A stretch of 4,143 nucleotides of DNA from a virus (IMGVR_UViG_2548877009_000015); one strand, 5' to 3'; numbered from the stretch's first letter, positions 386-4,143 are shown. The notes: generated by a model from the letters alone, not told the origin. A program made the numbers and translations.

Positions 386-619
386 TTATTCTCCGGTGTG
401 GGGCGCTTTATACTGGTCGTGTAATGTCTCTATTTCCTGCAACTCATTTATTACAGGCTCAAGAAGCGTTATTAATGCCGTGGCAATTCTTGATTTTTGT
501 TTGTCGCGTTCATTGTCGCCAAGTGTTTCAAGCCATATGCGCAATATTTCCATCATATTTTCACTGTGAGAAAGTGCAAGAAATACGCGATCTGTTGTTT
601 CGTGGTAAATATCACGCAT
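386..619 (-). CDS. Hypothetical small protein E, 77 aa
   Basis: ATG at 617-619, 1 nt after the stop of D, with GGGGA upstream. Helical-looking sequence. No family recognised. Confidence 0.55.
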   Translation of the reverse strand: MRDIYHETTDRVFLALSHSENMMEILRIWLETLGDNERDKQKSRIATALITLLEPVINELQEIETLHDQYKAPHTGE

Positions 620-620
620 A

Positions 621-842
621 TTAATCCCCGTCCGTCGCTTTTCTTAAAATAACCTCTGTCACGAAATCAGCATAGTTAGCGGCAATATCAAGAATATTTA
701 GCCCTGTATCTCTGTGCTCATCAGTGCAAAGAAAGAAAAAAGCCACCCGCATAATTTCAGATATTGACGAAAGCGCATCAGCCGCATCATCAGGAACGCC
801 GGAAAATTCCTGTTTCAGGGAATTAAAACGATCATCACGCAT
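621..842 (-). CDS. Hypothetical small protein D, 73 aa
   Basis: ATG at 840-842 directly downstream of the G-run, which can act as a Shine-Dalgarno. TAA stop is separated by 1 nt from the start of E (TAATATG). Confidence 0.5.
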   Translation of the reverse strand: MRDDRFNSLKQEFSGVPDDAADALSSISEIMRVAFFFLCTDEHRDTGLNILDIAANYADFVTEVILRKATDGD

Positions 843-1075
843 AACCCCCCCCCATTTTCACAATCAGCAATCAGGATGGCTTTGGCCTCATTCAGCGCCA
901 TATCAGCACTAAGTTGCATAACCGCCAGCGAATGAGGAACGAAAGCCCCTGCATATTCTGTTTCACTGGTGGCGTGCTTATGCGCCCTGTCAGCAATAAC
1001 AGAAATATCAATAAGCGCGAGCATCAGCGTAGTGAGCGCGGCGGCGGTTGCGTCCGGACGGATGTTATTGCACAT
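815..1075 (-). CDS. Hypothetical small protein C, 86 aa from the internal ATG (track ORF starts at 1132)
   Basis: ATG at 1073-1075 preceded by GGAGGGG with a 6-nt spacer; overlaps the end of B by 11 nt. Contains a hydrophobic stretch AAALTTLMLALIDISVIA. Its C-terminal Gly-Gly-Gly is encoded by the G9 tract. Confidence 0.5.
   Translation of the reverse strand: MCNNIRPDATAAALTTLMLALIDISVIADRAHKHATSETEYAGAFVPHSLAVMQLSADMALNEAKAILIADCENGGGLCVMIVLIP
845..853. repeat. Homopolymer C9 (G9 on the coding strand) at the C/D junction
   Basis: Nine consecutive C at 845-853. On the minus strand it reads GGGGGGGGG-TT-ATG, directly upstream of the start of D and inside the 3' end of C. Confidence 0.9.
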
Positions 1076-1298
1076 GGTGTACCCCTCCGCATTTTTTTTC
1101 GTTAGAAATAAGCGTTCTTCTTTCCTGTTCATCGCTCAGGAATACGCAGACCTCACCGCTAAGGCGTTTAAGTAAGCCGATGATTGCCCCTGATTCGCTG
1201 TCGGTCATCATGCCAGGGTAATCCTCTGCCAGTGCGCAAATAACTTCGATTTGGTGGGCGCGTTCTGCTGCCTGTTGTAGTGTGATTTCCTGGCTCAT
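1065..1298 (-). CDS. Hypothetical small protein B, 77 aa, from the ATG-initiated start (track ORF extends to a TTG at 1355)
   Basis: ATG at 1296-1298 overlaps the stop of A (ATGA) and is preceded by GGAGG with a 7-nt spacer. Acidic, helical-looking MSQEITLQQAAERAHQIEVICALAEDYPG... Confidence 0.55.
   Translation of the reverse strand: MSQEITLQQAAERAHQIEVICALAEDYPGMMTDSESGAIIGLLKRLSGEVCVFLSDEQERRTLISNEKKCGGVHHVQ
1092..1099. repeat. Homopolymer T8 (A8 on the coding strand) at the B/C junction
   Basis: Encodes Lys-Lys (GAA AAA AAA) near the C-terminus of B, immediately upstream of the Shine-Dalgarno of C. Confidence 0.9.
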
Positions 1299-1489
1299 AA
1301 GCCTACCTCCTGACGAATACGGGCGGCAAATACAGCAACACAACCGGACGGGCAACGGTTACGCGCTTCGCGTTCCGTCCAGGCGGTTACGTGGATGATT
1401 TGAGATTCTCCGGCACTCAGTGCCAGAAAACGCCACACAAAGGCCGTTTGTGTGTGTACAAGGTGTGGTATATGATTTACAGCAACCAT
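1295..1489 (-). CDS. Hypothetical small protein A, 64 aa; first gene of the leftward operon
   Basis: ATG at 1487-1489 preceded on the minus strand by AGGAG with a 5-nt spacer. TGA stop overlaps the start of the next ORF (ATGA). His/Cys pattern HIPHLVH...CPSGC. No family recognised. Confidence 0.55.
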   Translation of the reverse strand: MVAVNHIPHLVHTQTAFVWRFLALSAGESQIIHVTAWTEREARNRCPSGCVAVFAARIRQEVGL

Positions 1490-1518
1490 AACGGCTCCTA
1501 GTTTACGTTGTTGGTTAG

Positions 1519-1551
1519 AAGCCCGGTTAGTGTTCGCGCACAGCCGGGCTT
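1519..1551. other. GC-rich inverted repeat / stem-loop in the leader of the leftward operon
   Basis: AAGCCCGG (1519-1526) and CCGGGCTT (1544-1551) form an 8-bp stem with a 17-nt loop. On the plus strand it is followed by GC and T6 (1555-1560), which is terminator-like. Confidence 0.4.
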
Positions 1552-1576
1552 TGCTTTTTTAAGTGCCCTTGTGTTA

Positions 1577-1588
1577 AGGTGTACACCT
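1577..1588. promoter_or_regulatory. Operator-like site 1, perfect 12-bp palindrome AGGTGTACACCT in the divergent promoter region
   Basis: Perfect inverted symmetry read directly from the sequence; lies between the divergent starts at 1489 (minus) and 1622 (plus). Confidence 0.5.
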
Positions 1589-1611
1589 ATCGAGTAAAAA
1601 CATAACGCAAT

Positions 1612-1623
1612 AGGTGTACACAT
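1612..1623. promoter_or_regulatory. Operator-like site 2 (AGGTGTACACAT, GTGTACAC palindromic core) overlapping the regulator start codon
   Basis: Shares ATAGGTGTACAC with the reverse complement of site 1; centres are 35 bp apart; the 3' end overlaps the ATG at 1622-1624. Confidence 0.5.
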
Positions 1624-1816
1624 GTCAACGGTTATTAAGCGTGATAAAAAACCAAAGGGAACAGGTAAAGCCCCCCCGTTCCATATGCGAATATCTCCAG
1701 AACTGAAAGAACAGTTTGATAACGAGGCTAGCAATGATGGAGTAAGCCTAGCCAACTGGCTTAAAGAGTTGGGGCGCACTGAACTAAAGCGGCGCGGCAT
1801 AGAACCCAAAGGATAA
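1622..1816 (+). CDS. Ribbon-helix-helix (Arc/MetJ-like) DNA-binding protein, 64 aa; putative repressor of the divergent promoters
   Basis: Basic N-terminal tail KRDKKPKGTGKAPP, then FHMRISPELKEQFDNEASNDGVSLANWLKEL, which fits the beta-strand / helix / Gly-turn / helix pattern of Arc-like proteins. Two palindromic sites lie immediately upstream. AGG 7 nt before the ATG; TAA stop at 1814-1816. Confidence 0.65.
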   Translation: MSTVIKRDKKPKGTGKAPPFHMRISPELKEQFDNEASNDGVSLANWLKELGRTELKRRGIEPKG

Positions 1817-2901: not shown

Positions 2902-4143
2902 CTAAACGGCTCGGATACCCCTTTTACCACTGGCGAGGGTTACGCCCGTCGCCGCAGCCTCGACAAATTCGCCCCACCAGCGCATAAGCACGATGCGTTT
3001 TTCTATGTAGTTGCTCCGGTTGTATGCCCGTCTGACTTCGTTGGTGTCGACGTGGGCAAGTGCGGCCTCTATTACGTCTGGCTCAAAGCCTTCTTCGTTC
3101 GCTGCTGTGCTGAATATGGCGCGTAATCCATGAGACACCAGCACGCCAGCGAATCCCATGCGTCGTAATGCTGCGTTAGCGGTCTGGCTGTTCATCGGCT
3201 GCTGTGGGTCTTTCAGACTCGGGAAAACATAATCGCGGTGGTGGCTGATTGGTTTCATAGCCTCCAGCACTGCCATAGCCTGGTCACAAAGCGGGATAAC
3301 GTGGTCGCGGCGCATCTTCATGCGTCCGGCGGGTATGGTCCAGCGTTGCGCTTCCATGTCGATTTCTTCCCAGCGTGCCGACGATGCTTCAACGGGACGG
3401 GTTACGGTCAGTAACTGCCATTCAATCAGTAATCTGGTCTGCCGTTCTGTTGCCGATACTGATAAAGCCTGCATAAGCTCCGGCAGCTGTTCGGGGCGGA
3501 TTGTTGGCATATGTTTTTTTACAGGGGAGGGGAACGCCTTACGCACATTCATAGCCGGATTGGCATCAATCATCCCACTATTGGCGGCGTAATCCATTAC
3601 CTCATTTATACGCTGTAAAACTCGCTTGAGCGTTTCCAGGTTGCCACGTTCCTTGATGGGGGTAAGCACCTCAACGAACCTGCGAGCGGTCAGGGTGTCT
3701 ATTGGCGTGTTGCCGATGAACGGGAATACATATTTTTCCAGCGATCGCCAGATGTCTTTAATCGTATTGGGGGCCAGATTCTGGCTGATTTTCACCTGGT
3801 ACCATGCTGTTGCCACATTTTCGAACGTGTTCCCTTGTCTTCGGGCCTCTGTCTCTCTTTTTTGCCTCTCGTGGTCCTGCGGGTCAGTTCCGGCACGAAT
3901 TAACGCCCTGTACTCGCTACGGCGTTTTCTGGCATCAGCCAGGGAAACATCATCAAGCGATCCAAAACTCAGCAATATTCTTTTTTTGTCCGATGGTCGG
4001 TAGTAGGAAAATCTCCAGAGTTTTGATCCGGACGGTTTGATCAGGAGAAAAAGCCCTCCGCCGTCCTGTAGGGTGTATTCCTTTTCTGCTGGTCTGGCTG
4101 CTTTGATCTGTACTGTGGTTAATGGGGGTGTTTTTCTCGCCAT
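2902..4143 (-). CDS. int: Tyrosine recombinase, P4-family phage integrase, 413 aa
   Basis: 413-aa ORF starting MARKTPPLTTVQIKAARP. N-terminal arm-binding-type region (DGGGLFLLIKPSGSKLWRFSYY...SLADARKRR). C-terminal catalytic signature with Arg in TRPVEASSARWEEID, HGLR (HxxR box) and LAHVDTNEVRRAYNRSNYIEKR with the catalytic Tyr, then MRWWGEF. ATG at 4141-4143 (cat on plus), TAG stop at 2902-2904. Confidence 0.95.
   Translation of the reverse strand: MARKTPPLTTVQIKAARPAEKEYTLQDGGGLFLLIKPSGSKLWRFSYYRPSDKKRILLSFGSLDDVSLADARKRRSEYRALIRAGTDPQDHERQKRETEARRQGNTFENVATAWYQVKISQNLAPNTIKDIWRSLEKYVFPFIGNTPIDTLTARRFVEVLTPIKERGNLETLKRVLQRINEVMDYAANSGMIDANPAMNVRKAFPSPVKKHMPTIRPEQLPELMQALSVSATERQTRLLIEWQLLTVTRPVEASSARWEEIDMEAQRWTIPAGRMKMRRDHVIPLCDQAMAVLEAMKPISHHRDYVFPSLKDPQQPMNSQTANAALRRMGFAGVLVSHGLRAIFSTAANEEGFEPDVIEAALAHVDTNEVRRAYNRSNYIEKRIVLMRWWGEFVEAAATGVTLASGKRGIRAV

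Follow-up and report, generated by a model that had tools for sequence, protein, structure and literature searches.

Length-variable runs of G or C have been described as slipped-strand sites in several bacteria, for instance in hmbR and hpuAB of Neisseria (PMC3786947), the contingency genes of Campylobacter (PMC8355987), the poly-G tract of rmpA in Klebsiella (bioRxiv 10.1101/2025.09.12.675794) and the 7C tract of glpK in M. tuberculosis (bioRxiv 10.1101/717272). Homopolymeric-tract microevolution has also been reported for Bordetella pertussis (PMC1891110). Here, we describe a poly-G tract in a 4,143-nucleotide (nt) stretch of viral DNA, IMGVR_UViG_2548877009_000015 (hereafter the window, meaning the whole stretch analysed), which represents the integrase-proximal portion of an Escherichia coli phage-satellite island. 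The tract is a run of nine G residues (G9) at the junction of two small genes, called C and D in this work, and its length sets whether they form a single open reading frame (ORF) or two overlapping ones. Comparison of homologous islands indicates that C and D are probably two ancestrally separate, translationally coupled genes that meet at a slippage-prone homopolymer, the different tract lengths being near-neutral heritable alleles. In our literature searches, no paper was found on this tract or on simple-sequence-repeat variation in phage-inducible chromosomal islands (PICIs).

The poly-G tract at the junction of genes C and D

The G9 homopolymer occupies positions 845-853 on the coding, minus strand (C9, CCCCCCCCC, on the plus strand), exactly where a first-pass annotation made from the sequence alone had placed it. 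It is the sole homopolymer of at least 9 bases in the window, while dinucleotide-preserving shuffles contained 0.03 such runs per window, with at least one run in 5 of 200 shuffles. The run encodes glycine codons 75-77 of gene C (815-1075, minus strand), which in the G9 allele specifies 86 amino acids (aa), is predicted to fold as a helical hairpin and belongs to phrog_5146. The start of C was set at the ATG at 1075 in the style of the NCBI Prokaryotic Genome Annotation Pipeline (PGAP), as annotated in the near-identical loci L001 and L002. The same nine bases also constitute a Shine-Dalgarno-like element for gene D (621-842, minus strand; 73 aa, helical, phrog_24341). The ATG of D at 842-840 is separated from the run by 2 nt (TT), a distance that the first-pass annotation had given correctly.

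The C frame enters the run as ...C-E-N-G-G-G, and on the minus strand it reads GAA AAT GGG GGG GGG TTA TGC GTG ATG ATC GTT TTA ATT CCC TGA. The triple glycine had been proposed as the C-terminus of C. The three codons are indeed present, but they are followed by nine further codons (LCVMIVLIP), an out-of-frame reading of the beginning of D, before the stop codon TGA at 817-815. The resulting C/D overlap of 28 nt (815-842, minus strand) is particular to tract lengths divisible by 3. Three classes of tract length n can be distinguished on this basis. With n = 9 or 12, the class of the window, C would end 28 nt into D with the tail GGGLCVMIVLIP and a stop. With n = 8 or 11, it would stop 8 nt into D as GGGYA, and the 8-nt overlap with the C tail ...GGGYA is what G8 alleles contain. 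With n = 7, 10 or 13, C would be in frame with D, and the region is stop-free in the G7, G10 and G13 alleles, in which C-D is one ORF of 150-152 aa.

The run is complementary to the anti-Shine-Dalgarno sequence at the 3' end of 16S rRNA, with a calculated duplex energy of -11.1 kcal/mol, next to -11.6 for the upstream gene B and -10.0 for C. All genes of the operon have their Shine-Dalgarno sequence within the preceding ORF. Furthermore, G-rich tetramers are known to act as Shine-Dalgarno sequences that drive initiation downstream (Sharma et al. 2014, PMC4066793). The junction shows the features expected of a coupled gene pair, namely an anti-Shine-Dalgarno complement inside the upstream ORF, a stop/start overlap of 28 nt (G9) or 8 nt (G8), and a downstream ORF, D, that is autonomous in relatives. 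The run can most likely serve as the ribosome-binding site of D, and its use as a Shine-Dalgarno sequence, together with translational coupling of D to C, is suggested by this arrangement. A role of the tract as a promoter spacer between a -35 and a -10 element was also considered and rejected, as no sigma-70-like promoter or terminator was detected on either strand in 560-1160. Additionally, the junction gave no match in Rfam, even at E values up to 1.

Tract length and gene structure among homologous islands

In all, 124 junctions were assembled from the window, E. coli genomes, IMG/VR, one Shigella genome and a gapped-pattern scan of metagenome contigs; a one-genome-per-species collection contributed a single locus, from Shigella flexneri, with G8. 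Uninterrupted tracts were distributed as G8 (44 loci), G7 (34), G9 (29), G10 (5), G4 (3) and G11 (2), and the remaining 7 of the 124 loci carried interrupted tracts (GGGGGTGG, GGGGTTGG, GGGGAGGGGGGG and GGGGGGGGGGAG). One more metagenome contig had the interrupted tract GGGGGGGGTGG, and G9 was present in 12 of 53 metagenome contigs. All three frame relations between C and D were encountered, with a shift of 0 at G7/G10, +1 at G8/G11 and -1 at G9. The locus displays two recognised attributes of slipped-strand sites: a tract of at least 7 residues inside an ORF where a 1-base change alters the frame, and variation in length between alleles that are otherwise the same or nearly so. The first-pass annotation had named, as the outcome that would speak against its proposal, a G9 that never varies and genes C and D that are separate in every case. 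The comparison of islands revealed something else: tract lengths are heterogeneous (G4 to G13), and about one third of the alleles fuse the two genes.

The same annotation had predicted that one extra G would carry the C frame through GGG-V-M-R-D-D into D, giving a protein of roughly 150 aa. The computed G10 fusion has 151 aa, and a protein search with this hypothetical sequence returned many natural full-length proteins of 150-152 aa with the exact join and with identity up to 99%. The linkers of these proteins were mostly GG (G7), in some cases GGG (G10), and in two proteins GGGG, which is the protein-level evidence by which G13 is known. Fused C-D is a common natural form. The three frames occur without preference: lengths that fuse C to D (n = 1 mod 3) accounted for 28 of 90 haplotype-by-length combinations (31%; binomial test against 1/3, p = 0.74). 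Of 73 loci, 72 had an intact D of 65-79 aa whatever the tract length, and all 73 had an open C frame.

Whether C and D are one gene or two can be judged from more distant relatives. A HMMER search of 1.84 billion representative proteins delineated a narrow family of 50 clusters, in which the distant relatives are of two kinds, D-only proteins and C-only proteins that end at about residue 73-77 and lack the CENGG motif. Those with D only (71-78 aa) start at query residue 78, the Met located right after the tract, and the genes downstream of distant C genes are unrelated. In closer islands, D was found to follow an unrelated gene, with a G6 run (AGGGGGGTAAACATG) as its Shine-Dalgarno sequence, and C was found to precede an unrelated gene, with the tail ENGGGDYAK before the stop. 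Locked variants of both states occur as well, fused with G4 and split with GGGGGTGG. In PHROGs, C (phrog_5146), D (phrog_24341) and the fusion (phrog_2512) each have a family of their own. The Met codon after the tract was kept in 23 aligned diverse fused proteins, and among 120 fused proteins inspected, one had VI in place of VM. Taken from sequence comparison, this pattern argues for a separate ancestry of C and D, which are joined or split by tract length within a subclade. The first-pass annotation had left three options: a single gene, a phase-variable switch, or a pair of genes with the run as ribosome-binding site. The last is the best supported, by the D-only start at Met, the alternative partners and the duplex energy of the run. 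The loci with such alternative partners are L043, L044, L046, L053 and L055, and L054, L060-L062, L065 and L073; C and D are mosaic modules there, with the recombination joints exactly at the tract. A tandem-paralogue origin of C, D and the downstream gene E was rejected, as BLASTP detected no similarity among them.

The mutability of the tract was evaluated against its flanks and against other homopolymers. The junctions comprised 88 flank haplotypes (200 nt on each side), 16 of them with at least two members, and more than one tract length was present in 8 of these 16. Control runs at the same loci, consisting of A/T runs and G6 runs, were nearly invariant in the first case (A8, 14/15; A7, 22/22; A7, 15/16) and invariant in the second (9/9, 6/6, 6/6 and 5/5). 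The A8 control lies inside gene B (T8 on the plus strand, 1092-1099). The tract is a mutation hot spot that changes faster than its flanks.

Each length state is inherited as an allele. The exact C protein of the window, which can be produced in the G9-type frame only, was found on 437 contigs and its exact D protein on 918, while the G8-type C of strains CFT073 and Nissle and the fused 154-aa protein of O157:H7 each occurred on at least 1000 contigs. G10-type proteins were found on tens of contigs, one such 151-aa protein on 37. In a block dominated by O157:H7, a 119-nt match corresponding to the G7 length was present in 20 of 20 sampled complete genomes, and the one tract that was read (L087) is G7. 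Likewise, at least 17 O111-type complete genomes shared the same 4971-nt match, and the one tract read among them (L143) is G9. An O111-type record one base longer (L144) also has G9, the extra base being a T8-to-T9 change in gene E that frameshifts E. In both the O157 and the O111 clone, tract length thus appears constant. Lengths that are clustered at 7-9, apparently stable in clones and different among lineages fit the ordinary length-dependent mutability of homopolymers in a mismatch-repair-proficient host.

The pair Nissle 1917 (G8) and EcN_Sk (G7) was evaluated as a case of within-strain switching and rejected, since it carries the signature of homopolymer under-calling. Relative to Nissle 1917, EcN_Sk shows C8-to-C7 and T8-to-T7 changes within 1.3 kb plus a frameshifted Icd-like gene, and the length difference looks like an assembly error because of the nearby T8-to-T7 change and this frameshift. 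A change of A8 to A7 in gene B fuses B to C, as was seen in the 153-aa protein P0132 (3 contigs) and in the EcN_Sk assembly.

A second poly-G tract, of G7-G10 and again at a Gly-Gly position, was observed in the middle of a variant of gene E in sister islands. It occurs in two types, one with the context GCCGAAC[A]-Gn-ATTTATTT (L026 at about 3565, L059 at about 3566, L064 at about 3566 and L103 at about 687) and the other with the context CACCGAGC-Gn-TATTTACT (L024 at about 3517, L090 and L128), in which 3 of 3 sampled alleles were out of frame. Variant E is in frame at some of these lengths only, and the gene E of the window (386-619, minus strand) is without the tract.

Interpretation of the length alleles

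The reading of C and D as two coupled genes with a mutable junction can be assembled into a tentative mechanism. The run would have two roles, supplying Gly-Gly(-Gly) towards the C-terminal end of C as well as the Shine-Dalgarno-like sequence of D. Replication slippage would alter its length far faster than the flanks mutate, because the run is a long G/C homopolymer. In all length classes D would be made from its own start, coupled to C through the 8- or 28-nt overlap where the genes are split. Since neither the ATG nor the ribosome-binding site of D is lost in any class, tract length would determine whether C is free or linked to D, and not whether D is produced. The fused and split forms would be functionally equivalent.

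Several points weigh against this interpretation or limit it. For proteins without an assigned function, such as C and D, equivalence of the two forms is assumed. The set of control homopolymers comprised A/T runs and G6 only, with no G/C run of at least 7 in a stable context, and the 8 mixed haplotypes of 16 may be inflated, some public length differences being assembly errors. The lengths were taken from consensus assemblies, so they bear on alleles and not on the rate of switching within a culture. In addition, the NCBI pipeline calls the O111 G9 allele a 'frameshifted' pseudogene of the fused protein. Moreover, the tract is unbroken in 117 of 124 loci despite diverging flanks, and the region 798-877 (minus strand), made up of codons 67-74 of C and 1-15 of D, shows nearly no synonymous variation. 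In this comparison of 38 indel-free haplotypes, 68 of 134 degenerate codons vary over the whole alignment, and the search pattern partly forces the result. Strict neutrality predicts neither the synonymous-poor block of about 80 nt nor the unbroken tract. Such a block may stem from translation initiation at D, from a weak hairpin or from recombination between mosaic modules that are joined here. A candidate hairpin, in which the G run is paired with UUUAAUUCCC and the AUG of D is occluded, has a predicted energy of -12.1 kcal/mol and is marginal against shuffled sequences (p about 0.06).

The unbroken tract and the synonymous-poor block would also fit a contingency locus, in which selection keeps the tract for reversible, high-frequency switching between fused C-D and separate proteins, with effects on satellite or helper biology. 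Length polymorphism among alleles with identical flanks, a pure G run maintained over 88 haplotypes, two glycine codons that are invariably GGG, the second length-variable tract in variant gene E and the block poor in synonymous variation, with the bias already mentioned, are all compatible with such selection. Poly-G phase variation is also documented in another enterobacterium, in the rmpA gene of Klebsiella (bioRxiv 10.1101/2025.09.12.675794). The distribution of lengths speaks differently: they appear fixed, at the G7 length in the O157:H7-dominated block (20/20) and at one identical match length in O111-type genomes (at least 17, G9 where read), their frames are distributed as a random third, and the locked G4 and GGGGGTGG variants persist. 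Moreover, there is no clear ON/OFF state, because the start codon and the ribosome-binding site of D are kept at every length. Active mismatch repair in E. coli suppresses 1-nt slippage, which counts against such a locus as well. We therefore regard a selected switch of this kind as unlikely, and its more specific form, in which alternation between fused and separate C-D diversifies interactions with the helper phage or the host, as somewhat more doubtful again. Of the phase-variable switch suggested in the first-pass annotation, the length polymorphism has been borne out, but lengths that appear stable within clones, with no favoured frame, do not show a high-frequency switch.

A second alternative takes the fused protein of about 150 aa as the functional gene, so that the G8 and G9 alleles, including that of the window, would be frameshifted pseudogenes decaying in a domesticated island. 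The PGAP label on the O111 G9 allele, the abundance of the fused O157:H7 protein (at least 1000 contigs) and the existence of a PHROG family for the fused form agree with this proposal. It is improbable in view of the relatives described above: about two thirds of haplotypes are split, and the split alleles keep both ORFs intact. Distant homologues are separate, the D-only proteins starting at the Met that follows the tract, and C and D each pair with other partners. The retention of this Met in the 23 aligned fused proteins, with VI for VM in one of 120, also argues against this proposal.

Programmed recoding, either by a -1 frameshift on G_GGG_GGG or by RNA-polymerase slippage on the run of nine G, would produce a regulated C-D fusion from the G9 allele itself. 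Judged from the sequence, a -1 frameshift at the final pair of GGG codons would yield GGG-V-M-R-D-D with perfect re-pairing of tRNA-Gly, and nine identical bases are as long as the RNA-DNA hybrid inside RNA polymerase. On the other hand, the frame relation is not conserved, as the shift required in homologues is -1, +1 or zero. The heptamer G_GGG_GGG is formally in phase, but its type is inefficient: G_GG.G_GG.U gave the lowest frameshifting in E. coli (0.018%), and G-only heptamers lie outside the efficient motifs listed (PMC4066793). No downstream stimulator was evident, the fold of 770-860 (minus strand) having z = 0.12 against shuffles and the local hairpin being marginal. For transcriptional slippage, efficient slipping in vivo has been shown with stretches of 9 A or 9 T, and the documented slippage-prone runs are A/T, not G/C (PMC5009743), whereas the run here is G, and its length is not conserved, most relatives having G7 or G8 and so fewer than nine residues. 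Programmed frameshifting is not supported, and we consider recoding of either type very improbable.

The least credible explanation is that the G9 of the window is a sequencing or assembly error, as G/C homopolymers are prone to and as EcN_Sk illustrates among public assemblies; such error cannot explain this allele or the major allele classes, given the C protein with the G9-frame-only tail LCVMIVLIP on 437 contigs from independent assemblies, the G9 tracts of L001, L002, L143 and L144, the shared 4971-nt match length in at least 17 O111-type complete genomes and the 12 of 53 metagenome contigs with G9. The warning of sequencing error in the first-pass annotation thus holds for some public records and not for the window.

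Island context and comparison with known systems

C and D belong to the early operon of the island, whose tightly overlapping minus-strand genes run, in the window, in the order Icd-like, B, C, D, E and DUF4222, with a RepA helicase next in the operon. Gene B (1065-1298, minus strand; 77 aa, phrog_1478) lies upstream, and gene E (77 aa, phrog_2196) lies downstream, with its Shine-Dalgarno sequence GGGGA in the 3' end of D, an arrangement like that of the C/D junction. The window also contains an integrase (2902-4143; NF007246, E = 4.6e-167), an AlpA/HTH_17-like ORF (2199-2405) with a weak match under the Pfam cut-off, and two plus-strand genes, one of which is Arc/HicB-like (1622-1816). In L001, which is 99% identical over the C-D region, the operon goes on with RepA helicase, a single-stranded DNA-binding protein (SSB) and a fusion of a ClpP-like protease with a major capsid protein. 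By its gene content (integrase, AlpA-type regulator, replication and capsid genes), the island is a PICI-type or P4-like satellite of the capsid-encoding kind. EcCICFT073 (PMC6092414) serves as the comparison PICI, and its host CFT073 has a G8 split C allele (UniProt A0A0H2V8R5_ECOL6). The whole 4143 nt occurred in no complete E. coli genome of the collection, the best match covering 93%, while the 121 nt around the junction were matched in 1003 of 5426 complete E. coli genomes; on sequence evidence, the island is a mosaic.

The C-D proteins gave no Pfam, NCBIfam or PDB profile match, and every one of their PHROGs matches is of unknown function. An AlphaFold2 model of the fused form is all-helical at low confidence (predicted local distance difference test, pLDDT, 61), with a two-helix hairpin for C, helices for D and a disordered or low-confidence linker at residues 78-95. 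A Foldseek comparison of C-D with the PDB returned generic helical bundles only, with E values of 0.3 or worse.

Other features were observed outside the junction. The divergent intergenic region 1484-1621 (plus strand) contains two copies of the palindromic GGTGTACAC at 1578-1586 and 1613-1621, directly upstream of the Arc/HicB-like gene, which are likely operator sites. The same region holds, at about 1521-1560, a hairpin resembling a terminator (AGCCCGG...CCGGGCT and then a T run), and a sub-threshold SymR-like Rfam match at 1484-1555 (E = 0.044) that lies antisense to where the Icd-like gene starts. A C7 run is present at 1671-1677 (plus strand) within gene 1622-1816 (K-A-P-P-F), and few related loci share its flanks.

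The junction is currently annotated in RefSeq in several ways: as two overlapping coding sequences (CDS) (G9: L001, L002), as one 154-aa CDS (G7, O157: L087) and as a 'frameshifted' pseudogene (G9, O111). These annotations and the three PHROGs families can be read as tract-length alleles of one junction, by which the inconsistency could be removed for a locus found in about one fifth of complete E. coli genomes (1003/5426). From a biological point of view, the locus may be seen as a natural experiment of recurrent gene fusion and fission, in which two small satellite proteins are Gly-Gly-linked or separate with no obvious selective preference. The tract also offers a handy marker of, and a caution about, the homopolymer accuracy of E. 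coli assemblies. If high-frequency switching were true, simple-sequence-repeat phase variation would join the regulatory repertoire of phage satellites; a contingency locus would be the first case of such phase variation reported for a PICI-type satellite, and an unusual one for mismatch-repair-proficient E. coli.

Among known systems, the slipped-strand tracts resemble the C/D junction in having a coding G/C run of 7-11, frame-shifting 1-base changes and a length that outpaces the flanks. They differ in that the alternatives here are one fused ORF and two overlapping ORFs instead of ON and OFF, with D having its own start and ribosome-binding site; in addition, no frame is favoured, the length appears stable in clones, and the tract resides in a phage satellite of mismatch-repair-proficient E. 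coli. Recoding sites such as dnaX, IS3/IS911, prfB and the A9 of Thermus dnaX share a homopolymeric slippery stretch at a two-frame boundary, where a 1-base shift leads to a fusion, whereas the C/D junction has no conserved frame relation, no stimulator and an inefficient motif of G instead of A/T. The junction also resembles coupled genes of phage and satellite operons, as the ATG of D lies 2 nt past an anti-Shine-Dalgarno complement inside C with an overlap of 8 or 28 nt, and the same layout recurs at the B/C, D/E and E/DUF4222 junctions of this operon. In contrast to the usual coupled pairs, the Shine-Dalgarno sequence here is a pure homopolymer, which would render the junction mutationally unstable and make in-frame fusion of the two genes possible.

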